This document shows positions 1 to 10,708 of a stretch of 10,708 bases of DNA, in pieces. Below the pieces are notes generated by a model that made no database searches, had not been told where the DNA came from, and worked only from the letters and a program-made list of their open reading frames with translations. Source of the DNA: a virus; UHGV virus genome UHGV-0299297, one strand, 5' to 3'. Position 1 is the first letter of the stretch, and the number at the start of each line of letters is the position of its first letter. A program made the translations under genes and the position numbers.

Positions 1-132
1 GCTGCAAAAACAGCGACGAGACAATCTTCACGGCCAGCGATTCTGGCGGCAGCTCCCGTCCGTAGCGTTCCAGTACATACTCAGTGGCATACACACCGAC
101 ACCACCGGCAACCACACAGATAACCGTCGCCA
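1..132. repeat. Left arm of a perfect 132-bp inverted repeat; exact reverse complement of 298-429
   Basis: Direct base-by-base comparison: the reverse complement of 1-132 equals 298-429. The match stops at 133/297 and may extend beyond the left window edge. Confidence 0.9.
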
Positions 133-247
133 GAATCGCCCAGGTGGTGACAAAACTGACGGCCACGCTCTGCGGGTAAATCAGGGACAGTGCCAGCATC
201 AGCGCCAGCGACACGTTCAGCATCAGTGAAAGGGATAATTTCTTCAT
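1..247 (-). CDS. lysA: LysA-like lysis-timing membrane protein, N-terminal 82 codons, running off the left edge (inverted copy)
   Basis: ATG at 247-245 on the minus strand with a GGAG ribosome binding site 8 nt upstream (complement of 256-259). Translation MKKLSLSLMLNVSLALMLALSLIYPQSVAVSFVTTWAILATVICVV... is hydrophobic. Codons 40-82 are identical to forward codons 19-61 of ORF 246-608 because of the inverted repeat. Confidence 0.55.
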   Translation of the reverse strand, partial: MKKLSLSLMLNVSLALMLALSLIYPQSVAVSFVTTWAILATVICVVAGGVGVYATEYVLERYGRELPPESLAVKIVSSLFLQ

Positions 248-608
248 GGTGTTTACTCCGTTTAAGCCGGTACGCCGCCAGCGGTACGCCAGACGGTTGG
301 CGACGGTTATCTGTGTGGTTGCCGGTGGTGTCGGTGTGTATGCCACTGAGTATGTACTGGAACGCTACGGACGGGAGCTGCCGCCAGAATCGCTGGCCGT
401 GAAGATTGTCTCGTCGCTGTTTTTGCAGCCGGTGCCGTGGCGCAGACGGGCAGTAGCTCTGGTGGTGATGGTGGCGACATTTATCTCGCTGGTCGCTGCC
501 GGGTGGATTTTTACCGCGCTGATTTATCTCGTGGCATCGGTGTTCTTCCGGCTGATACGTACGGCCTGCCGTCAGCGTTTTGAGGGGCGGGAATCATGTC
601 AAAGCTGA
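246..608 (+). CDS. lysA: LysA-like protein, chimeric: authentic from about 298 onward, with the first ~17 codons being antisense of the lysA upstream region
   Basis: ORF track gives 120 aa with hydrophobic segments. There is no ribosome binding site before ATG 246. Sequence from 298 is the continuation of the minus-strand lysA N-terminus, so a reconstructed intact gene would be about 141 aa. The stop overlaps the lysB start. Confidence 0.5.
   Translation: MVFTPFKPVRRQRYARRLATVICVVAGGVGVYATEYVLERYGRELPPESLAVKIVSSLFLQPVPWRRRAVALVVMVATFISLVAAGWIFTALIYLVASVFFRLIRTACRQRFEGRESCQS
298..429. repeat. Right arm of the perfect 132-bp inverted repeat; lies within the lysA coding sequence
   Basis: Same comparison as the left arm. 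The two arms are separated by a 165-bp unique spacer (133-297). Confidence 0.9.
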
Positions 609-1021
609 TGATTGTGCTGGTTGTGTTGTTATCACTGGCGGTGGCCGGTCTGTTTCTGGTGAAACACAAAAATGCCAGCCTGCGCGCTTCGCTGGACAGG
701 GCGAACAACGTCGCCAGTGAACAGCAGACGACCATCACCATGCTGAAAAACCAGCTTCATGTTGCACTCACCAGGGCAGACAAAAACGAGCTGGCGCAGG
801 TGGCACTGCGTCAGGAACTGGAGAACGCCGCGAAACGTGAAGCACAGCGTGAGAAAACCATCACGAGGTTACTGAATGAAAACGAAGATTTTCGCCGCTG
901 GTACGGCGCTGACCTGCCTGATGCTGTGCGCCGGTTGCACCAGCGCCCCGCCTGCACCGACGCCAGTGATTGTCCACAACGCCTGCCCGAAAGTGAGCCT
1001 TTGCCCGATGCCGGGCAGTGA
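596..1021 (+). CDS. lysB: LysB, Rz-like inner-membrane spanin (i-spanin)
   Basis: 141 aa with an N-terminal transmembrane segment (MSKLMIVLVVLLSLAVAGLFLV) followed by a charged region of likely coiled-coil character. Sits immediately after lysA, and lysC is embedded in its +1 frame. Confidence 0.85.
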   Translation: MSKLMIVLVVLLSLAVAGLFLVKHKNASLRASLDRANNVASEQQTTITMLKNQLHVALTRADKNELAQVALRQELENAAKREAQREKTITRLLNENEDFRRWYGADLPDAVRRLHQRPACTDASDCPQRLPESEPLPDAGQ

Positions 1022-1166
1022 CCCGCAGACGAACGGCGATTTAAGTGCCGATATCCGGCAGCTTGAGAACGCGCTGGCGCGCTGTGCCAGCCAGGTAAAA
1101 ATGATTAAACACTGTCAGGACGAAAACGATGCTCAAACCCGACAGCCTGCGCAGGGCGCTGACTGA
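876..1166 (+). CDS. lysC: LysC, Rz1-like outer-membrane lipoprotein spanin (o-spanin), overlapping the lysB 3' end
   Basis: 96 aa with a signal peptide and a lipobox-like Cys (MKTKIFAAGTALTCLMLCAGC), then a proline-rich mature region. Starts inside lysB in another frame and runs past the lysB stop. GAGG ribosome binding site upstream. Confidence 0.8.
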   Translation: MKTKIFAAGTALTCLMLCAGCTSAPPAPTPVIVHNACPKVSLCPMPGSDPQTNGDLSADIRQLENALARCASQVKMIKHCQDENDAQTRQPAQGAD

Positions 1167-1596
1167 TGCCGTCACGGTACTGAAAACTAACCCCGATATG
1201 CTGCGGATATTCGTGGATAACGGGAGTATTGCCTCCACACTGGCGACGTCGCTGTCATTCGAAAAGCGTTACACGCTCAATGTCATTGTGACCGACTTTA
1301 CCGGTGATTTTGACCTGCTCATTGTGCCGGTGCTGGCGTGGCTGCGGGAAAATCAGCCCGACATCATGACCACCGACGAAGGCCAGAAAAAGGGCTTCAC
1401 GTTTTATGCAGACATCAACAATGACAGCAGCTTTGATATCAGTATCAGCCTGATGCTGACCGAGCGCACGCTGGTCAGTGAGGTTGACGGTGCGCTGCAT
1501 GTGAAGAATATCCCGGAACCCCTGCTGCCGGAGCCGGTCACCCGCCCGATGGAGCTGTATATCAATGGCGAACTGGTGAGCAAGTGGGATGAATGA
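1129..1596 (+). CDS. R: Tail completion protein gpR
   Basis: 155 aa ORF in the conserved P2 position after lysC. AGGA ribosome binding site 8 nt upstream. The stop overlaps the S start. Confidence 0.9.
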   Translation: MLKPDSLRRALTDAVTVLKTNPDMLRIFVDNGSIASTLATSLSFEKRYTLNVIVTDFTGDFDLLIVPVLAWLRENQPDIMTTDEGQKKGFTFYADINNDSSFDISISLMLTERTLVSEVDGALHVKNIPEPLLPEPVTRPMELYINGELVSKWDE

Positions 1597-2041
1597 GTTT
1601 AAGCGTTTTGAAGACCGGCTGACCGGACTTATTGAATCGCTGTCACCGTCAGGGCGTCGGCGACTGAGTGCCGAACTGGCGAAACGTCTGCGGCAGAGTC
1701 AGCAGCGTCGGGTGATGGCTCAGAAAGCCCCGGACGGCACACCCTACGCGCCACGCCAGCAGCAGAGCGCCAGAAAAAAGACCGGTCGTGTTAAGCGAAA
1801 AATGTTTGCGAAACTTATCACCAGTCGTTTTTTGCATATCCGCGCCAGCCCGGAACAGGCATCAATGGAGTTTTACGGCGGAAAGTCACCGAAAATCGCC
1901 AGTGTGCATCAGTTCGGTCTGTCGGAAGAAAACCGGAAAGACGGTAAGAAAATTGATTATCCGGCGCGTCCCCTGCTCGGCTTTACCGGTGAGGATGTGC
2001 AGATGATTGAAGAGATTATTCTGGCGCACCTCGACCGTTAG
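1589..2041 (+). CDS. S: Tail completion protein gpS
   Basis: 150 aa basic protein. Its start overlaps the R stop (ATGAATGA), as expected for the coupled P2 R-S pair. Confidence 0.9.
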   Translation: MNEFKRFEDRLTGLIESLSPSGRRRLSAELAKRLRQSQQRRVMAQKAPDGTPYAPRQQQSARKKTGRVKRKMFAKLITSRFLHIRASPEQASMEFYGGKSPKIASVHQFGLSEENRKDGKKIDYPARPLLGFTGEDVQMIEEIILAHLDR

Positions 2042-2073
2042 TTGTGCCATTCCCGACACCTCATCGTCACATT

Positions 2074-2095
2074 GCCGCCGGTATGACCCGGCGGC
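2074..2095 (+). promoter_or_regulatory. Perfect 8-bp GC stem-loop (GCCGCCGG-tatgac-CCGGCGGC) 13 nt upstream of the V start codon
   Basis: Inverted repeat read directly. It has no downstream T-run, so it is not a classical intrinsic terminator. It occupies the place of a Shine-Dalgarno sequence for V, which has no obvious GGAG. Confidence 0.35.
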
Positions 2096-2107
2096 ATCCT
2101 TCCCGTT

Positions 2108-2743
2108 ATGAACACTCTCGCAAATATTCAGGAACTCGCGCGCGCACTGCGCAACATGATTCGCACCGGCCTTGTCGTCGAAACCGACCTTAACGCCGGT
2201 CGATGCCGTGTGCAGACCGGCGGCATGTGCACCGACTGGCTTCAGTGGCTGACCCATCGTGCCGGACGTTCGCGCACATGGTGGGCACCTTCCGTGGGGG
2301 AACAGGTGCTGATTCTGTCTGTGGGCGGTGAACTCGACACGGCGTTCGTTCTGCCGGGGATTTATTCCGGCGATAACCCCGCGCCGTCTGCGTCGGCGGA
2401 TGCCCTGCATATCCGTTTCCCTGACGGGGCGGTGATTGAGTATGAACCCGAAACCAGTGCACTCACGGTAAGCGGAATTAAAACGGCCAGCGTGACGGCT
2501 TCTGATTCTGTTACCGCCACGGTGCCGGTGGTCATGGTGAAAGCATCAACCCGCGTCACCCTGGACACACCGGAGGTGGTCTGCACCAACAGGCTGATTA
2601 CCGGCACGCTGGAAGTGCAGAAGGGCGGGACGATGCGCGGCAACATTGAACACACCGGTGGTGAACTCTCATCAAACGGTAAGGTACTGCATACCCATAA
2701 ACACCCCGGCGACAGCGGCGGCACAACCGGGAGTCCTCTATGA
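2108..2743 (+). CDS. V: Baseplate central spike protein gpV
   Basis: 211 aa in the conserved position. The C-terminal HTHKH motif (DNA 2690-2704) matches the His-rich iron-binding apex described for the P2 gpV spike. The stop overlaps the W start. Confidence 0.9.
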   Translation: MNTLANIQELARALRNMIRTGLVVETDLNAGRCRVQTGGMCTDWLQWLTHRAGRSRTWWAPSVGEQVLILSVGGELDTAFVLPGIYSGDNPAPSASADALHIRFPDGAVIEYEPETSALTVSGIKTASVTASDSVTATVPVVMVKASTRVTLDTPEVVCTNRLITGTLEVQKGGTMRGNIEHTGGELSSNGKVLHTHKHPGDSGGTTGSPL

Positions 2744-3087
2744 CAGCGCGTTATCTCGGAATGAATCGCAGTGATGGCCTGACTGTCTCTGACCTTGAGC
2801 ATATCAGCCAGAGTATCGGCGATATCCTGCGCACGCCGGTCGGCTCACGGGTGATGCGTCGTGATTACGGCTCGTTGCTGGCGTCAATGATTGACCAGCC
2901 GCAGACCCCGGCGCTTGAGTTGCAGATTAAGGTCGCCTGTTACATGGCGGTGCTGAAATGGGAACCCCGCGTCACCCTGTCATCCGTCACCACGGCGCGC
3001 AGTTTTGACGGTCGAATGACGGTCACGTTAACCGGCCAGCACAACGACACCGGCCAGCCACTTTCGTTAACCATCCCTGTGAGTTGA
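2740..3087 (+). CDS. W: Baseplate wedge protein gpW (T4 gp25-like)
   Basis: 115 aa. ATGA overlap with the V stop and GGGAG ribosome binding site upstream. Conserved V-W-J-I order. Confidence 0.9.
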   Translation: MTARYLGMNRSDGLTVSDLEHISQSIGDILRTPVGSRVMRRDYGSLLASMIDQPQTPALELQIKVACYMAVLKWEPRVTLSSVTTARSFDGRMTVTLTGQHNDTGQPLSLTIPVS

Positions 3088-3091
3088 AACC

Positions 3092-4000
3092 ATGCCGATT
3101 ATCGACCTGAACCAGCTACCCGCACCGGATGTGGTCGAGGAGCTGGACTTTGAAACCATTCTCGCTGAACGCAAGGCGACACTGATTTCCCTTTACCCGG
3201 AAGATCAGCAGGAGGCGGTCGCCCGTACCCTGACACTGGAATCTGAGCCTCTCGTCAAACTGCTGGAAGAAAATGCTTATCGTGAGCTTATCTGGCGTCA
3301 GCGTGTGAATGAGGCCGCACGGGCGGTGATGCTGGCCTGTGCCGCCGGTAATGACCTTGATGTGATTGGTGCCAATTACAACACCACGCGCCTGACTATT
3401 ACCCCGGCAGATGATTCGACTATCCCACCGACACCGGCAGTGATGGAATCTGACACCGATTATCGTCTGCGTATTCAGCAGGCTTTTGAGGGCTTAAGCG
3501 TCGCCGGGTCAGTGGGAGCCTATCAGTATCATGGCCGCAGTGCCGACGGGCGTGTCGCGGATATCTCTGTCACCAGTCCGTCTCCGGCCTGCGTCACTAT
3601 CTCTGTGCTGTCACGTGAAAATAACGGCGTCGCATCCGAAGACCTGCTGGCCGTGGTGCGTAACGCCCTTAATGGCGAGGACGTCAGGCCGGTGGCCGAC
3701 CGCGTGACCGTGCAGTCTGCCGCCATTGTTGAATATCAGATAAACGCCACGCTTTACCTTTACCCTGGTCCCGAAAGCGAACCCATCCGCGCTGCTGCCG
3801 TGAAAAAACTGGAAGCGTATATCACGGCACAGCACCGGCTGGGGCGCGACATCCGTCTGTCTGCCATTTATGCCGCTTTGCATGTGGAGGGCGTGCAGCG
3901 TGTCGAGCTGGCCGCACCACTGGCCGACATCGTGCTCAACAGTACGCAGGCGTCTTTCTGTACCGAATACCGCGTCGTGACCGGAGGCTCGGATGAGTGA
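3092..4000 (+). CDS. J: Baseplate wedge protein gpJ (T4 gp6-like)
   Basis: 302 aa, the P2 gpJ length. The stop overlaps the I start (ATGAGTGA). Confidence 0.9.
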   Translation: MPIIDLNQLPAPDVVEELDFETILAERKATLISLYPEDQQEAVARTLTLESEPLVKLLEENAYRELIWRQRVNEAARAVMLACAAGNDLDVIGANYNTTRLTITPADDSTIPPTPAVMESDTDYRLRIQQAFEGLSVAGSVGAYQYHGRSADGRVADISVTSPSPACVTISVLSRENNGVASEDLLAVVRNALNGEDVRPVADRVTVQSAAIVEYQINATLYLYPGPESEPIRAAAVKKLEAYITAQHRLGRDIRLSAIYAALHVEGVQRVELAAPLADIVLNSTQASFCTEYRVVTGGSDE

Positions 4001-4604
4001 TTCGCGCCTGCTGCCGACCGGCTCATCACCGCTTGAAATTGCTGCCGCGAAAGCCTGTGCGGAAATTGAAAAAACGCCGGTCAGTATTCGTGAACTGTGG
4101 AACCCGGACACCTGCCCGGCAAATCTGCTGCCGTGGCTGGCGTGGGCCTTTTCGGTCGACAGGTGGGATGAAAAGTGGCCGGAAGCGACAAAACGCGCCG
4201 TTATCCGCGATGCCTATTTCATCCACTGTCATAAGGGTACTGTCGGCGCAATCCGGCGTGTTGTGGAGCCGCTCGGCTATCTGATTGAAGTGAGGGAGTG
4301 GTGGCAGCTCAACGAGGAGCCGGGGACGTTCCGTATCGTTGTTGGCGTGCTTGAGCAGGGTATTACCGAAGAAATGTATCTGGAGCTGGAACGTCTCGTT
4401 GCTGATGCAAAACCGGCGAGCCGCCATCTGACGGGACTGGCTATCAGTTTAAGTACAACCGGCAACATTTTTGCCGGAACGGGATGCTATCACGGTGACG
4501 CCCTGACGGTTTATCCCTACACCCCGGAGGCCATTATTGTCGGAGGGGATTATTTCCCGGCCTCGGTCATTCATTTAATTGATAACCTGAGAGTAAACGC
4601 ATGA
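3993..4604 (+). CDS. I: Baseplate protein gpI
   Basis: 203 aa. GGAGG ribosome binding site upstream. The stop overlaps the H start (ATGA). Confidence 0.85.
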   Translation: MSDSRLLPTGSSPLEIAAAKACAEIEKTPVSIRELWNPDTCPANLLPWLAWAFSVDRWDEKWPEATKRAVIRDAYFIHCHKGTVGAIRRVVEPLGYLIEVREWWQLNEEPGTFRIVVGVLEQGITEEMYLELERLVADAKPASRHLTGLAISLSTTGNIFAGTGCYHGDALTVYPYTPEAIIVGGDYFPASVIHLIDNLRVNA

Positions 4605-6280
4605 CAGTGAAATACTACGCCATTCTGACTAATCAGGGCGCAGCACGACTGGCTAACGCGACGATGCTCGGCAGTAAGCTGAATCTGACGCAAATGGCCG
4701 TTGGTGATGCGAATGGTGTATTACCGACACCAGACCCGGCACAGACAAAACTGATTAACCAGAAACGCATTGCACCGCTGAATCTTCTGAGTGTTGACCC
4801 TAACAATCAGAGCCAGATTATTGCGGAGCAAATTATCCCTGAAAACGAGGGAGGATTCTGGATCCGTGAGATTGGGCTTTATGATGATGAAGGCGTACTC
4901 ATTGCGGTGGCGAACTGCCCGGAAACGTACAAACCGCAGTTGCAGGAAGGCAGTGGTCGTACCCAGACTATCCGCATGATTCTGGTTGTCTCGAATACCG
5001 AAGCCATCACGCTGAAAATCGACCCGTCGGTGGTACTGGCGACCCGTAAATATGTGGATGACAAAATCTCAGAACACGAACAGTCACGACGACACCCGGA
5101 TGCATCGCTGACCGCAAAAGGTTTTACTCAGTTAAGCAGCGCAACCAACAGCACGTCTGAAACACTGGCCGCAACGCCGAGAGCGGTAAAGGTCGCGTAT
5201 GATCTTGCTAACGGGAAATATACTGCACAGGACGCGACCACAGCGCGAAAAGGTCTTGTCCAGCTCAGTAGCGCCACCAACAGCGATTCTGAAACGCTTG
5301 CGGCAACGCCAAAGGCGGTAAAGACAGCATATGACCTTGCTAACGGGAAATATACCGCACAGGACGCGACCACCGCGCGAAAAGGCCTTGTCCAGCTCAG
5401 CAGCGCCACTAACAGCACGTCAGAAACGCAGGCTGCCACACCAAAAGCCGTGAAGGCTGTATATGACCTTGCCAATGGAAAACAACCTGCCGACGCCACA
5501 CTGACCGCACTGGCAGGCCTTGCCACTGCGGCAGACAAACTTCCGTATTTTACGGGGAATGATACAGCCAGCCTGACAACCCTGACTAACGTTGGACGGA
5601 ATATTCTGGATAAAGCAAGCACACAGGCGGTTATTCAATATCTTGGTCTGAGCGATGCAAGTGGATACGTTGGACGCTGGCTGAATACCCGGGTTTTCAC
5701 CTCATCAGGTACGTACACCCCGACGCCAGGAACAAAACGGATCAGGGTCACAATAACTGGCGGCGGTGGCGGAGGGGGCGGCTGCAAGGCTACATCCAAT
5801 AATGAAACGTTTTTCGGTGCTGGCGGTGGGGCCGGTGGAACAATAATTTCAATAATTACCCCGACACAGAATAGTTATCCAGTCACTATCGGCGCAGGTG
5901 GGGCCGGTGGTGTTAGTGCGACGAACGGCACCAGTGGCGGGAATAGCGTATTTGCATCGTTAATTGCTCCTGGTGGCGCAGGTGGCGGGAAAGTGGGAGT
6001 TACAAATACAAACGGCGGTAACGGAGGTGTGCCGAGTACTGGCGATATCCGCATCACTGGTGGAAATGGAGGCGACGGTCAGTCCGGAAATATCAGCGTC
6101 AGCGGTGAAGGCGGAACATCGTACTGGGGTGGCGGTGGACGCGCAGGCGCTGGCGGTGGCGTTAGCGGTAAGGCATATGGTTCAGGCGGAGGTGGTGCAT
6201 ACGATGCCGGTTATAGCGGAACCAGTATGACGGGCGGGAAAGGCGCTGCAGGGATTTGTATTATCGAGGAGTTTGCATAA
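4601..6280 (+). CDS. H: Tail fiber protein gpH: conserved N-terminal baseplate-attachment region, central tail-fibre repeats, glycine-rich C-terminal domain
   Basis: 559 aa. The N-terminal ~150 aa resemble the P2 gpH-family collar/attachment region. The centre has three tandem ~44-aa repeats (SSATNS-SETLAATPKAVK-YDLANGK). The C-terminus is glycine-rich, including an 8-Gly run, and ends CIIEEFA. Confidence 0.9.
   Translation: MTVKYYAILTNQGAARLANATMLGSKLNLTQMAVGDANGVLPTPDPAQTKLINQKRIAPLNLLSVDPNNQSQIIAEQIIPENEGGFWIREIGLYDDEGVLIAVANCPETYKPQLQEGSGRTQTIRMILVVSNTEAITLKIDPSVVLATRKYVDDKISEHEQSRRHPDASLTAKGFTQLSSATNSTSETLAATPRAVKVAYDLANGKYTAQDATTARKGLVQLSSATNSDSETLAATPKAVKTAYDLANGKYTAQDATTARKGLVQLSSATNSTSETQAATPKAVKAVYDLANGKQPADATLTALAGLATAADKLPYFTGNDTASLTTLTNVGRNILDKASTQAVIQYLGLSDASGYVGRWLNTRVFTSSGTYTPTPGTKRIRVTITGGGGGGGGCKATSNNETFFGAGGGAGGTIISIITPTQNSYPVTIGAGGAGGVSATNGTSGGNSVFASLIAPGGAGGGKVGVTNTNGGNGGVPSTGDIRITGGNGGDGQSGNISVSGEGGTSYWGGGGRAGAGGGVSGKAYGSGGGGAYDAGYSGTSMTGGKGAAGICIIEEFA
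5117..5485 (+). repeat. Tandem direct repeat, period 132 bp, about 2.8 copies, inside H
   Basis: Copies begin at 5117, 5249 and 5381 (AAAGGNYTTGTCCAGCTCAGYAGCGC...). They are near-identical at DNA level, with a few substitutions. Confidence 0.85.
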
Positions 6281-6690
6281 TGAATGCGTCATATGCAGTT
6301 ATTGAAAATGGGATGGTTGTGAATGTCATTGTCTGGGATGGTGAGGATGAATTCACTGTGCCGGATAATCTGCAGCTCATTAATATTTCTGATATCAGTG
6401 AGCAGCCCGGAATCGGCTGGGCGTATTCAGACGGGGTATTTACTGCGCCGCTCCCTCCGGAACGTTCTCATGATGAACTGGTAGCTGACGCTGAACAGAA
6501 AAAACAGTCGCTGTTAGACGCAGCAATGGCCAATATCAGCGTGATTCAGTTAAAGCTGCAGGCCGGGCGCAAACTGACGCAAGAGGAAACTACCCGACTT
6601 AACGTTGTGCTGGATTATATCGACGCTGTGACGGCAACAGATACCAGCACCGCACCGGATGTCATCTGGCCTGAACTGCCGGAGGCGTAG
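6280..6690 (+). CDS. G: Tail fiber assembly chaperone gpG (Tfa)
   Basis: ATG at 6280 overlaps the H stop (TAATG) and has a GAGGAG ribosome binding site at 6266-6271. The track start at 6256 is a TTG and is not preferred. The gene follows H, as tail fiber assembly genes do. Confidence 0.85.
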   Translation: MNASYAVIENGMVVNVIVWDGEDEFTVPDNLQLINISDISEQPGIGWAYSDGVFTAPLPPERSHDELVADAEQKKQSLLDAAMANISVIQLKLQAGRKLTQEETTRLNVVLDYIDAVTATDTSTAPDVIWPELPEA

Positions 6691-6790
6691 ACCATTCAAT
6701 ATCTGACGTACCGGAAGTATCGGACCGCTCCGGTGCGTACAGGTAATCCAGCCACAAATTATATTGCGCCAGTACCTCAGACCTGCCGGG

Positions 6791-6991
6791 CTATTGCTTA
6801 GTGTTCATGTGTTTATTGGCCTGATTAATCAGTAGCTGTCTTTCTGGTCGTGTGGATCCTGCAAATCCTGAATGGTCGGAAATACCGCAGGCGGGCTGAT
6901 TGCCCGCCTTTTTTATCTGTTGTTTCATCCACTGACCAGCCAGGTCAAATAGCGTCTCATGCTCTGCACAACAGAAAATAGTTGCACCCAT
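6791..6991 (-). CDS. Hypothetical 66-aa ORF antisense in the G-FI gap; probably not a real gene
   Basis: From the ORF track only. No convincing ribosome binding site, several rare codons (CTA, ATA, AGA, CGA, GGA), it spans the forward terminator, and its start lies over the FI ribosome binding site region. Confidence 0.15.
   Translation of the reverse strand: MGATIFCCAEHETLFDLAGQWMKQQIKKAGNQPACGISDHSGFAGSTRPERQLLINQANKHMNTKQ
6889..6916 (+). terminator. Rho-independent terminator ending the H-G transcript
   Basis: Stem AGGCGGGC (6889-6896), loop TGATT, stem GCCCGCCT (6902-6909), then TTTTTAT. In the reverse direction the stem is not followed by a U-run, so it is forward-oriented. Confidence 0.7.
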
Positions 6992-7010
6992 TAACCACGG
7001 AGTTAAACGG

Positions 7011-8201
7011 ATGAGTGACTATCATCACGGCGTGCAGGTGCTGGAGATTAACGACGGCACCCGCGTCATTTCCACCGTATCCACTGCCATTGTCGGCATG
7101 GTCTGCACGGCCAGCGATGCGGATGCGGAAACCTTCCCCCTCAATAAACCTGTGCTGATTACCAATGTGCAGAGCGCAATTGCAAAGGCCGGTAAAAAAG
7201 GCACGCTGGCGGCGTCGCTGCAGGCCATCGCTGACCAGTCAAAACCGGTCACCGTTGTCGTGCGTGTGGAAGACGGCACCGGCGACGACGAAGAAACGAA
7301 ACTCGCGCAGACCGTTTCCAATATCATCGGCACCACTGACGAAAACGGTCAGTATACCGGACTGAAAGCCCTGCTGGCGGCAGAGTCGGTAACCGGTGTT
7401 AAACCGCGTATTCTCGGTGTGCCGGGACTGGACACCAAAGAGGTGGCTGTTGCACTGGCATCAGTCTGCCAGAAGCTGCGCGCTTTCGGGTATATCAGCG
7501 CATGGGGCTGTAAAACCATTTCCGAGGTGAAAGCCTACCGCCAGAATTTCAGTCAGCGTGAGCTGATGGTCATCTGGCCGGATTTCCTCGCATGGGATAC
7601 GGTCACCAGTACCACCGCCACCGCGTATGCCACCGCCCGTGCGCTGGGTCTGCGTGCCAGAATCGACCAGGAGCAGGGCTGGCATAAAACGCTGTCCAAC
7701 GTCGGGGTAAACGGTGTTACCGGCATCAGCGCGTCCGTATTCTGGGATTTGCAGGAGTCCGGTACCGATGCTGACCTGCTTAACGAGTCTGGCGTCACAA
7801 CGCTGATTCGACGCGACGGTTTCCGATTCTGGGGTAACCGTACCTGCTCTGATGACCCGCTGTTCCTCTTTGAAAACTACACCCGCACCGCGCAGGTGCT
7901 GGCCGACACGATGGCTGAGGCGCACATGTGGGCGGTGGACAAGCCCATCACCGCAACGCTGATTCGCGACATCGTTGACGGCATCAATGCCAAATTCCGT
8001 GAGCTGAAAACAAACGGCTATATCGTGGATGCGACCTGCTGGTTCAGCGAAGAATCCAACGATGCGGAAACCCTTAAGGCCGGAAAACTGTATATCGACT
8101 ACGACTATACCCCGGTGCCTCCTCTTGAAAACCTGACCCTGCGCCAGCGTATTACCGATAAATACCTGGCAAATCTGGTCACCTCGGTTAACAGCAATTA
8201 A
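7011..8201 (+). CDS. FI: Contractile tail sheath protein gpFI
   Basis: 396 aa, the P2 FI length. Sequence is recognisably P2 FI-like from the N-terminus (MSDYHHGVQVLEIN...) to the C-terminus. GGAG ribosome binding site 8 nt upstream. Confidence 0.95.
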   Translation: MSDYHHGVQVLEINDGTRVISTVSTAIVGMVCTASDADAETFPLNKPVLITNVQSAIAKAGKKGTLAASLQAIADQSKPVTVVVRVEDGTGDDEETKLAQTVSNIIGTTDENGQYTGLKALLAAESVTGVKPRILGVPGLDTKEVAVALASVCQKLRAFGYISAWGCKTISEVKAYRQNFSQRELMVIWPDFLAWDTVTSTTATAYATARALGLRARIDQEQGWHKTLSNVGVNGVTGISASVFWDLQESGTDADLLNESGVTTLIRRDGFRFWGNRTCSDDPLFLFENYTRTAQVLADTMAEAHMWAVDKPITATLIRDIVDGINAKFRELKTNGYIVDATCWFSEESNDAETLKAGKLYIDYDYTPVPPLENLTLRQRITDKYLANLVTSVNSN

Positions 8202-8213
8202 GGAGCCTGACCG

Positions 8214-8732
8214 ATGGCAATGCCGCGCAAACTCAAGTTAATGAACGTCTTTCTGAACGGCTACAGCTATCAGGGCGTTGCAAAGTCCGTCACGCTGCCA
8301 AAACTGACCCGTAAGCTCGAAAACTATCGCGGTGCGGGGATGAACGGCAGCGCACCGGTAGACCTCGGCCTTGATGACGATGCGCTGTCAATGGAGTGGT
8401 CGCTCGGGGGCTTCCCGGATTCGGTTATCTGGGAGCTTTACGCCGCAACCGGTGTGGATGCTGTGCCGATTCGTTTTGCAGGCTCTTACCAGCGTGACGA
8501 TACCGGCGAAACGGTGGCCGTCGAAGTGGTCATGCGTGGACGTCAGAAAGAAATCGACACCGGCGAGGGTAAACAGGGAGAAGACACCGAGTCGAAAATC
8601 TCCGTGGTCTGCACCTATTTCCGGCTGACGATGGACGGTAAGGAGCTGGTCGAAATCGACACCATCAACATGATTGAGAAGGTGAATGGCGTCGACCGGC
8701 TGGAGCAACACCGCCGCAATATCGGCCTGTGA
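8214..8732 (+). CDS. FII: Tail tube protein gpFII
   Basis: 172 aa, the P2 FII length. AGGAG ribosome binding site at 8201-8205. Directly follows the sheath gene. Confidence 0.95.
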   Translation: MAMPRKLKLMNVFLNGYSYQGVAKSVTLPKLTRKLENYRGAGMNGSAPVDLGLDDDALSMEWSLGGFPDSVIWELYAATGVDAVPIRFAGSYQRDDTGETVAVEVVMRGRQKEIDTGEGKQGEDTESKISVVCTYFRLTMDGKELVEIDTINMIEKVNGVDRLEQHRRNIGL

Positions 8733-8739
8733 TTTTCAT

Positions 8740-8760
8740 CCGGTCAGCCAGGCTGACCGG
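8740..8760 (+). promoter_or_regulatory. Perfect 21-nt palindrome (CCGGTCAGCC-A-GGCTGACCGG) between FII and E; candidate attenuator or RNA processing hairpin
   Basis: Read directly, 8 nt after the FII stop. It is followed only by TT, so it is at most a weak terminator. Confidence 0.35.
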
Positions 8761-8788
8761 TTAACCCTGATTCAGAAGTGAGAAAACC

Positions 8789-9064
8789 ATGAACAAAGAA
8801 AATGTCATTACCCTGGACAATCCGGTCAAGCGTGGTGAGCAGGTCATCGAACAGGTCACGCTGATGAAACCTAACGCCGGGACGCTGCGCGGTGTCAGTC
8901 TGGCAGCGGTCGCGAACTCCGAAGTCGATGCACTGATTAAGGTGCTGCCGCGCATGACGGCACCGATGCTGACCGAGCAGGAAGTCGCCGCGCTGGAACT
9001 GCCTGACCTTGTGGCGCTGGCCGGTAAGGTGGTCGGTTTTTTGTCGCCGAACTCGGTGCAGTGA
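8789..9064 (+). CDS. E: Tail assembly chaperone gpE (functional analogue of lambda G)
   Basis: 91 aa ORF in the conserved position between FII and T. It contains the slippery heptamer near its 3' end. Confidence 0.85.
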   Translation: MNKENVITLDNPVKRGEQVIEQVTLMKPNAGTLRGVSLAAVANSEVDALIKVLPRMTAPMLTEQEVAALELPDLVALAGKVVGFLSPNSVQ

Positions 9065-9216
9065 CGTTTCCAAAAAATCTCTCGGTCGATGACCTGATGG
9101 CGGATGTGGCAGTGATATTTCACTGGCCGCCATCAGAACTGTATCCCATGAGCCTGACCGAACTCATCACATGGCGCGAAAAGGCGCTCCGGCGAAGCGG
9201 AAACACGAATGAGTAA
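8789..9216 (+). CDS. E': E+E' frameshift fusion product (tail assembly chaperone, analogue of lambda GT)
   Basis: A -1 shift at 9037-9043 extends E by 57 codons (VAELGAVTFPKNLSVDDLMADVAVIFHWPPSELYPMSLTELITWREKALRRSGNTNE). Its stop at 9214-9216 overlaps the T start. This is the conserved arrangement ahead of the tape measure gene. Confidence 0.75.
9037..9043 (+). other. Programmed -1 ribosomal frameshift site, slippery heptamer T_TTT_TTG
   Basis: In the E zero frame the codons are GGT TTT TTG. The -1 frame is open from 9043 to the TAA at 9214-9216. Confidence 0.7.
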
Positions 9217-10708
9217 CAATGTAAAATTACAGGTATTGCTCAGGGCTGTTGACCAGGCATCCCGCCCGTTTAAATCCATCCGCACAGCGAGCAAATCGCT
9301 GTCGGGGGATATCCGGGAAACACAAAAATCACTGCGCGAGCTGAACGGTCACGCATCCCGTATTGAGGGATTCCGCAAGACCAGTGCACAGCTCACCGTG
9401 ACTGGTCATGCACTTGAAAAGGCACGGCAGGAAGCCGAAGCCCTTGCCACACAGTTTAAAAACACCGAACGTCCGACCCGTGCTCAGGCGAAAGTGCTGG
9501 AATCCGCAAAGCGTGCGGCGGAGGACTTACAGGCGAAATATAACCGCCTGACGGATTCCGTTAAACGCCAGCAACGGGAACTGGCCGTTGTGGGAATTAA
9601 TACCCGCAATCTTGCACATGATGAGCAGGGACTGAAAAACCGTATCAGTGAAACCACCGCACAACTTAACCGTCAGCGTGACGCGCTGGCGCGTGTCAGT
9701 GCGCAACAGGCAAAACTTAACGCAGTAAAACAGCGTTATCAGGCCGGAAAGGAACTGGCCGGAAATATGGCCTCGGTAGGCGCTGCCGGTGTGGGGATTG
9801 CGGCGGCGGGAACTATGGCCGGAGTTAAGCTGCTGATGCCCGGTTATGAGTTTGCGCAGAAAAACTCAGAATTGCAGGCCGTGCTAGGAGTGGCAAAAGA
9901 CTCCGCCGAAATGACCGCACTCCGCAAGCAGGCGCGCCAGCTCGGCGACAATACCGCAGCCTCGGCAGATGATGCAGCCGGTGCACAGATTATCATTGCG
10001 AAAGCGGGTGGAGATGCTGCGGCTATTCAGGCGGCAACGCCGGTCACGCTGAATATGGCACTGGCGAACCGCCGCACGATGGAAGAAAACGCCGCCCTGC
10101 TGATGGGGATGAAATCCGCCTTTCAGCTTTCAAACGATAAGGTCGCTCATATCGGGGATGTTCTCTCCATGACGATGAACAAAACCGCCGCCGATTTTGA
10201 CGGCATGAGCGATGCGCTGACCTATGCCGCACCTGTGGCAAAAAATGCCGGTGTCAGCATTGAAGAAACCGCCGCAATGGTCGGGGCGCTGCATGATGCA
10301 AAAATTACCGGTTCAATGGCGGGGACGGGAAGCCGTGCCGTGTTAAGTCGCCTGCAGGCACCGACGGGAAAAGCATGGGATGCACTCAAAGAGCTTGGTG
10401 TGAAAACCTCAGACAGTAAGGGGAATACCCGACCAGTATTTACCATTCTGAAAGAAATGCAGGCCAGTTTTGAGAAAAACCGGCTCGGTACTGCCCAGCA
10501 GGCTGAATACATGAAAACTATTTTCGGGGAGGAGGCCAGCTCAGCCGCCGCCGTGCTGATGACTGCCGCCTCAACCGGAAAGCTGGACAAACTGACTGCT
10601 GCGTTTAAAGCCTCAGACGGGAAGACCGCCGAGCTGGTAAATATCATGCAGGATAACCTCGGCGGCGACTTTAAATCGTTTCAGTCAGCGTATCAGGCTG
10701 TTGGCACT
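9209..10708 (+). CDS. T: Tail tape measure protein gpT, N-terminal 500 codons; 3' end beyond the window
   Basis: ATG at 9209 (MSNNVKLQVLLRAV...). The frame is open for 1500 nt to the window end. Alanine- and glutamine-rich with helical character, typical of tape measure proteins. Directly follows E/E'. Confidence 0.9.
   Translation, partial: MSNNVKLQVLLRAVDQASRPFKSIRTASKSLSGDIRETQKSLRELNGHASRIEGFRKTSAQLTVTGHALEKARQEAEALATQFKNTERPTRAQAKVLESAKRAAEDLQAKYNRLTDSVKRQQRELAVVGINTRNLAHDEQGLKNRISETTAQLNRQRDALARVSAQQAKLNAVKQRYQAGKELAGNMASVGAAGVGIAAAGTMAGVKLLMPGYEFAQKNSELQAVLGVAKDSAEMTALRKQARQLGDNTAASADDAAGAQIIIAKAGGDAAAIQAATPVTLNMALANRRTMEENAALLMGMKSAFQLSNDKVAHIGDVLSMTMNKTAADFDGMSDALTYAAPVAKNAGVSIEETAAMVGALHDAKITGSMAGTGSRAVLSRLQAPTGKAWDALKELGVKTSDSKGNTRPVFTILKEMQASFEKNRLGTAQQAEYMKTIFGEEASSAAAVLMTAASTGKLDKLTAAFKASDGKTAELVNIMQDNLGGDFKSFQSAYQAVGT

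Follow-up and report, generated by a model that had tools for sequence, protein, structure and literature searches.

The left edge of the window, by which is meant the whole 10,708-nt stretch of viral DNA analysed here, carries a perfect inverted repeat. Very probably, this is a hairpin (fold-back) artefact that sequencing or assembly left at a contig end and not a feature of the phage genome. Judged by its sequence and that of its relatives, the underlying DNA almost certainly belongs to a P2-like (Peduovirus) element of the ordinary kind, prophage or phage, with the gene order K-lysA-lysB-lysC-R-S. Reversal of positions 1-297 restores gap-free colinearity with relatives, the same genotype occurs elsewhere in normal order and the junction that accompanies the repeat was found nowhere else in the collections searched, and it is for these reasons that an artefact is favoured. 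A contig-end fold-back had been the first of the explanations offered in the original prediction, and the comparative evidence (one novel join, a normal-order twin genotype and no recurrence) now comes down on its side.

Geometry of the repeat and the junction at 297/298

An inverted-repeat scan, subsequently re-verified, pairs positions 1-132 with positions 298-429 (132 nt each, 100% complementary) around a loop of 165 nt, and the coordinates originally given for the two arms and for the spacer (133-297) proved exact on re-checking. Chance cannot account for a perfect match of this length; the runner-up inverted pair in the window is 40 nt long at 70%, and no repeat was found at the right end. 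Inwardly, the repeat is limited by G at 133 opposite T at 297, which do not pair. Outwardly, the left arm does begin at base 1, as had been observed, and since its limit is therefore the window edge, 132 nt is a lower bound set by that edge and not an intrinsic length. The right arm (298-429, plus strand) encodes lysA from the second base of codon 39 to codon 82 in normal orientation and is colinear with all downstream sequence. The left arm (1-132, minus strand) spans the same codons, mirrors 298-429 exactly as its reverse complement and matches L140, a near-identical contig, at 100% identity (reverse complement of positions 9170-9301). In addition, the reverse complement of 1-429 is identical to 1-429 with its spacer flipped.

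Alignment to the P2-like prophage of Escherichia coli SWHEFF_58 (L002), and also to P2 itself (L001), resolves the window into the reverse complement of reference positions 2336-2632 followed by reference position 2501 onward. Against both references, position 298 onward is colinear on the plus strand and positions 1-297 match the minus strand, the two pieces overlapping by 132 nt in the reference. This agrees with the earlier description of the reverse-complemented K-end/lysA 5' region fused to lysA from codon 39. At 132/133 the sequence is native lysA read backwards, and 297/298 is the sole new join. Here the reverse complement of K, at codon -11, abuts lysA codon 39 in a blunt junction with 0 nt of microhomology. 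Across the join the sequence runs ...GCCAGACGGT directly into TGGCGACGGT..., as against the native continuity at the breakpoint of ...AAACTGGTC into ACCGTCTGGCG... in K and of ...GGGCGATTC into TGGCGACGGT... in lysA. Both breakpoints have a 6-nt natural inverted repeat (ACCGTC/GACGGT) at or close to them. It was considered as a seed for the fold-back and dropped as evidence, as 10% of random pairs of sites 165 nt apart are equally good (P about 0.10) and priming from it predicts a join 10 nt off the observed one.

The spacer is composed of two parts, both encoded on the minus strand. Positions 133-247 hold the authentic 5' end of lysA, namely its first 38 codons and 1 nt more. The ATG (247-245) reads leftward, and the translation (MKKLSLSL...) is 100% identical to the LysA of L140; a ribosome-binding site, GGAG, is read from the sequence at 256-259 (minus strand), 8 nt upstream of this ATG. 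Positions 262-297 hold the last 11 codons and the stop of the endolysin gene K, which ends at the breakpoint; its product closes with TVWRTAGGVPA, the K C-terminus in L140, and K is annotated in L002 as a glycoside hydrolase family 24 (GH24) protein. Sequence reading and translation thus confirm that the spacer contains the true lysA start and its ribosome-binding site on the minus strand, as had been proposed. From 247 to 1, the minus strand translates to MKKLSLSL...SSLFLQ, the first 82 residues of a P2-type LysA. The order of the operon is the same as in relatives, with the K tail immediately preceding the lysA start (minus strand) and lysB overlapping the lysA stop on the plus strand.

On the plus strand, a chimeric open reading frame (ORF) of 120 codons (246-608) joins 17 antisense codons in frame with LysA residues 39-141, which matches the approximately 17 antisense codons predicted to open the forward lysA. 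The antisense start is in frame with the downstream lysA by chance, and a long ORF therefore survives across the junction. Its ATG (246-248, plus strand) and the authentic lysA ATG (247-245, minus strand) overlap in the palindrome CATG. This chimeric ORF is most likely not a real gene. It had been said to start without a ribosome-binding site, and this stands in so far as no good site is present, but AAGGGA, a weak and poorly spaced Shine-Dalgarno-like element, does sit 11-16 nt upstream of the ATG at 246. P2 late promoters are Ogr-dependent; a scan of 1-1200 for sigma-70-like promoters, which did not extend to the Ogr-dependent class, found none able to drive the plus-strand genes independently.

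A local Pfam scan gave no LysA match, and the NCBIfam profile NF038378, the RefSeq family of P2 LysA, was used for this protein. The minus-strand product of 247-1 covers profile positions 1-73, where it is cut by the edge, and the plus-strand ORF 246-608 covers positions 40-124 only. The flipped reconstruction, in which positions 1-297 are reversed, covers positions 1-124 of 124 with 118.8 bits (cut-off 40), and its LysA is identical to that of L140 at 141/141 residues. The expectation that flipping the spacer would restore a 141-codon lysA was accordingly met by a product of 141 amino acids, 100% identical to the normal-order protein. Downstream, lysB (596-1021, plus strand; TIGR03495 phage_LysB, E=1.7e-51) encodes an Rz-like spanin and is intact, overlapping the lysA stop. 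The Rz1-like spanin gene lysC (876-1166, plus strand; NF038368 P2_Rz1, E=6e-38; PF23793) lies partly within lysB, and its true start is probably further downstream than 876, as called in relatives.

Normal-order relatives and the remainder of the window

When positions 1-297 are flipped, the window becomes a gap-free, colinear match of 10,576 nt with its relatives. The closest of these, L140 (a 61-kb contig) and L141 (a 12.5-kb contig), were reached via the rare R-protein allele of the window, and both are in normal order. This allele led to three contigs in all, each of them with the normal arrangement. L140 has 2 mismatches in 10,576 nt against the flipped reconstruction and 2 in 10,411 against the window, and L141 has 1 mismatch in 5,091 against the flipped reconstruction. 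A gut-metagenome contig (L004) and an isolate genome (L005), also in normal order, differ from the window at 8 and 9 of 10,411 positions, respectively. In all four, the reverse strand is 100% identical to window positions 1-297. Likewise, contigs encoding exactly the tail-fibre protein of the window all have the arrangement K(165 aa)-LysA(141 aa)-LysB-LysC-R-S. The comparison with the lysA region of P2-like relatives that had been suggested alongside the prediction therefore yields near-identical relatives that are all in normal order.

The fold-back arrangement itself did not recur in any collection searched. In 5,426 complete E. coli genomes, 1,611 match the window and none covers at least 80% of positions 1-1200 at one place; the same is true of the 83 matching entries among 50,697 phage records. 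The colinear matches in both sets all begin at exactly 298. A 35-mer spanning the junction and a SNP-tolerant 22-mer gave 0 exact matches in the one-genome-per-species, IMG/VR viral and JGI metagenome contigs; as a positive control for this search, a native 21-mer at the same lysA position was found in at least 120 viral contigs. None of the 128 fetched P2-like loci has lysA sequence on both strands, and both the chimeric ORF (in 10 start variants) and the 82-aa LysA stump are absent from a collection of 15 billion proteins. A terminal hairpin is present at 1 of the 284 ends of the fetched loci, that of the window only, most of these ends not being true contig ends.

About 10 of the 128 P2-like viral loci (L016, L017, L024, L027, L054, L064, L066, L074, L113 and L123) end within the 476-nt K-end/lysA stretch, and L064 at least is a whole contig. 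Assemblies may tend to break repeatedly in the K-end/lysA region, for instance at the transition from identical to divergent sequence between co-resident P2-like prophages.

The remainder of the window (1129-10708, plus strand) is the P2 late region, comprising R, S, V, W, J, I, H, G, FI, FII, E/E' and T, whose ORFs match the Pfam-annotated genes of near-identical loci 1:1 at an offset of 5400. All are intact except the tape-measure gene T (9209-10708), which is cut mid-gene at the right edge: in L004, T occupies 14609-17056 and the window ends at 16108. As the right edge lies within T and the left within lysA, the window is a fragment broken inside genes at both ends.

Several features of these late genes and of their counterparts in relatives were observed in passing. 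The tail-fibre gene H (4601-6280) contains three in-frame tandem copies of a 132-nt (44-aa) unit at 5116-5511, with identities to the first copy of 82% (second) and 68% (third); relatives share this repeat, and the equality of its unit with the arm length of the inverted repeat looks like a coincidence. Six of the eight differences from L004/L005 fall within 126 nt of the tail-tube gene FII (8445-8570) and are absent in the comparison with L140, a cluster that looks like a small recombination patch between P2-like phages. The G-FI intergenic slot (6691-7010), which we take to be the known P2 cargo and defence hotspot, is empty but for a 66-aa minus-strand ORF (6791-6991) with no Pfam match. 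In five relatives with an identical tube protein (L130, L131, L134, L136 and L137; locus positions approximately 4800-8800), the same slot carries cargo, consisting of an invertase with alternative fibre segments, an SduA_C (Shedu-like) gene, or SIR2 with DUF6602. The frames of E (8789-9064) and E' (9061-9216), annotated as PF10109 and PF06528 in relatives, overlap, and are presumably the classic P2 tail-chaperone pair expressed by programmed frameshift. Upstream of the region equivalent to the window, the L140 locus has a Fic-domain gene (PF02661, locus positions 76-1116) adjoining the portal gene.

Graph simulation and competing explanations

The origin of the repeat was modelled in a simulated k-mer graph whose input was the normal sequence and a single fold-back fragment bearing the 297/298 join. 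A path-resolving walk through the junction halts once it meets k-mers that it has already used, so that the contig ends in an inverted arm exactly k-1 long. At k=133 the simulation reproduces window positions 1-600 base for base, with or without reads from the K gene, and at k=127 and k=141 the arms are 126 and 140 nt. A strict unitig walk leftward from lysB was also tried as a route and rejected, as it stops at a C/T branch at 297/298 and does not produce the window. If the path-resolving walk takes the other branch, a spacer-flipped contig with an intact lysA results, and the two spacer orientations have identical canonical k-mer sets. Since the same k-mers yield both orientations and the simulated arm equals k-1, neither the arm length nor the orientation of the spacer carries biological information. 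The printed orientation is arbitrary for the further reason that the reverse complement of 1-429 is the spacer-flipped form, built from the same k-mers. The sole empirical claim made by the contig is that k-mers across 297/298 existed.

Two parts of the original prediction are modified by these results. It had likened the 132-nt arm to an assembler k-mer of 127, an argument that holds approximately only, given that the simulated arm is k-1 and 132 nt implies k=133. It had also contrasted the split lysA with a flip-restored one; the geometry was right, but the two are not independent states. Indeed, were the arms really to continue outside the window, the intact lysA would be the copy on the minus strand, reading from 247 to 1 and onward. 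With regard to the implied k, MEGAHIT contig names among the fetched loci show values of 127 and 141, and SPAdes uses a k of at most 127. To our knowledge, 133 is not the default final k of any common assembler, and a literature search for assemblers using k=133 returned only papers on lysine-133.

The preferred explanation requires that one false join arose between library preparation and contig output, by which a minus strand that stops 36 nt into K from its 3' end was connected to plus-strand sequence 165 nt away, at lysA codon 39. Of the possible routes, a chimeric fold-back fragment or read whose junction k-mers got into the assembly graph would be the likeliest. A leftward walk from lysB would then have taken the junction, traversed the 165-nt loop along the wrong strand and come to a halt on re-entering its own k-mers, leaving a terminal arm of k-1 = 132 nt at the contig end. 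We infer that the window edge at position 1 is the end of the contig and that the assembler's graph had 132-nt overlaps, and that the junction would derive from a chimeric molecule and not from genomic DNA. The signature of the graph walk is, in itself, the same whether the junction k-mers are chimeric or come from real DNA.

An artefact could also have arisen after assembly, through a mis-join in which a 297-nt neighbour contig (K-end plus lysA codons 1-82), overlapping the main contig by 132 nt, was appended without a gap and in the wrong orientation. This route, which we regard as unlikely, is suggested by the perfectly blunt join with no microhomology, by the overlap of exactly 132 nt between the two pieces in the true sequence and by a left piece that stops exactly at the edge, and the adjacency would need no chimeric molecule. 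Nevertheless, k=133 is implied here too, by a 297-nt graph edge with a 132-nt overlap on either side, the graph walk yields an identical final sequence more simply and scaffolders normally use orientation information and place Ns at joins. It is also conceivable, but distinctly improbable, that some DNA molecules of the sample contained a real head-to-head fold-back (inverted duplication) with a homology-free break at the K/lysA boundary. Its structure would be ...lysB' lysA' (165-nt loop) lysA(39-141) lysB R S..., with the long arms collapsed by the assembler to k-1 nt. A k-1 arm at a contig end is equally expected from real junction k-mers, these k-mers needed enough support to pass the assembler's filters, and bacterial populations do show spontaneous inversions and duplications (PMC3411829). 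The bacterial inversions confirmed in that study had inverted homologies, albeit short, at their endpoints, verification having required at least 12 bp (PMC3411829), compared with 0 nt at the window junction. The event would also be unique among thousands of P2-like sequences, the same genotype exists in normal order at a distance of 2 SNPs in 10.5 kb, and the remaining 10.4 kb show no decay, the late genes being intact. Finally, the prior for a very recent gross rearrangement that falls exactly at a contig end is low.

A further proposal is a functional switch, in which the 132-nt arms recombine and the 165-nt spacer flips, thereby toggling lysA and the timing of lysis. Perfect inverted repeats of 132 nt could recombine, and the flipped form does encode an intact LysA of 141 amino acids; despite this, the proposal is extremely improbable. 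The repeat pair occurs in 0/128 P2-like loci, 0/1,611 matching E. coli genomes and 0/83 matching phage records, even the 'on' state would be without K and the upstream operon, and the two 'states' of 1-429 are mere reverse complements of each other. Neither the window nor, to a distance of 10 kb, the near-identical L140 contains an invertase/resolvase gene (PF00239), and one representative Hin/Gin/Cin-type 26-bp crossover site (taken from PMC4134206) gave 0 matches in a search at up to 3 mismatches. The flip switch of the original prediction is thus left with no invertase gene, no crossover site and no second example of the junction in the genomes and contigs searched.

If the fold-back artefact is accepted, the biology of the element is little affected: it would be an ordinary P2-like element with a normal lysis cassette. 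The consequences chiefly concern data hygiene. Gene calling would yield a spurious LysA variant of 120 aa besides a truncated one, repeat detection would yield a terminal inverted repeat, and comparative pipelines might infer inversion or phase switching. More generally, when a perfect inverted arm closes a contig, it is the assembler that sets how long the arm is (k-1) and which way the loop reads, and the single junction is the datum to check. Were the junction real, the organisation of the P2 operon means that R, S and the lysis genes would be severed from the upstream late operon. The prophage would be defective, with a truncated K and its lysis and tail-completion genes split from that operon. 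Such a palindromic (snap-back) rearrangement of prophage or replicating phage DNA would be a modestly interesting example of a homology-free event.

Comparison with known systems

The P2 LysA family (NF038378, 'DNZ54_00345 family'; Pfam PF28015) is one point of reference. Jointly, the two partial copies in the window amount to a full-length member, but as printed neither copy is complete.

Reversible inversion between inverted repeats in late genes is a real phenomenon in the tail-fibre switches of P2-like, Mu, P1 and e14 prophages, represented among the loci fetched here by L130, L131 and L134, and EC958 provides a further example of prophage tail-fibre inversion (PMC4134206). These switches have an adjacent serine invertase, 26-bp crossover sites and imperfect arms, and are conserved in many genomes, whereas the window has none of these characteristics. 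In L130, L131 and L134, the fibre switch adjoins a PF00239 resolvase gene.

An inverted repeat at a contig end is also produced by true hairpin telomeres, such as those of Borrelia replicons and N15-type linear prophages, when sequence is read round the hairpin (PMC10353223). A hairpin telomere is, however, the physical end of a linear replicon; it has a telomere motif and no long loop and needs a telomere resolvase. The turn in the window, in contrast, is inside lysA of a cos-type P2-like phage and encloses a 165-nt loop. Wrap-around at a telomere was rejected as a candidate, as relatives continue normally through the turn and no telomere resolvase is encoded among the neighbouring genes.

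Closer parallels are found among artefacts. Chimeric fragments with inverted repeats that form from adjacent single strands are a recognised artefact class (PMC8458033). They arise in FFPE material and during enzymatic fragmentation and end repair, and connect sites separated by some hundreds of bases (PMC8458033), a scale that matches the window. The model for these chimeras differs in having a short reverse-complementary seed, of approximately 6 bp, shared at the breakpoint, where the join in the window has 0 nt of overlap and the nearby 6-mer is 10 nt off. The classic PacBio hairpin, consisting of insert, adapter and reverse insert, has long arms and essentially no genomic spacer, as opposed to the 165-nt genomic loop and short arm of the window; an arm this short, of a length seemingly determined by the graph (k-1), suggests short reads and an assembler of the de Bruijn type. 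Contig-end hairpins are themselves recognised artefacts and have been screened for in E. coli assemblies, including their prophage regions (PMC4134206). They resemble the window in presenting a perfect inverted repeat that extends to the end of the sequence, with unique sequence past the repeat that is colinear with the true genome, and, as in the window, they can be removed by trimming or flipping.
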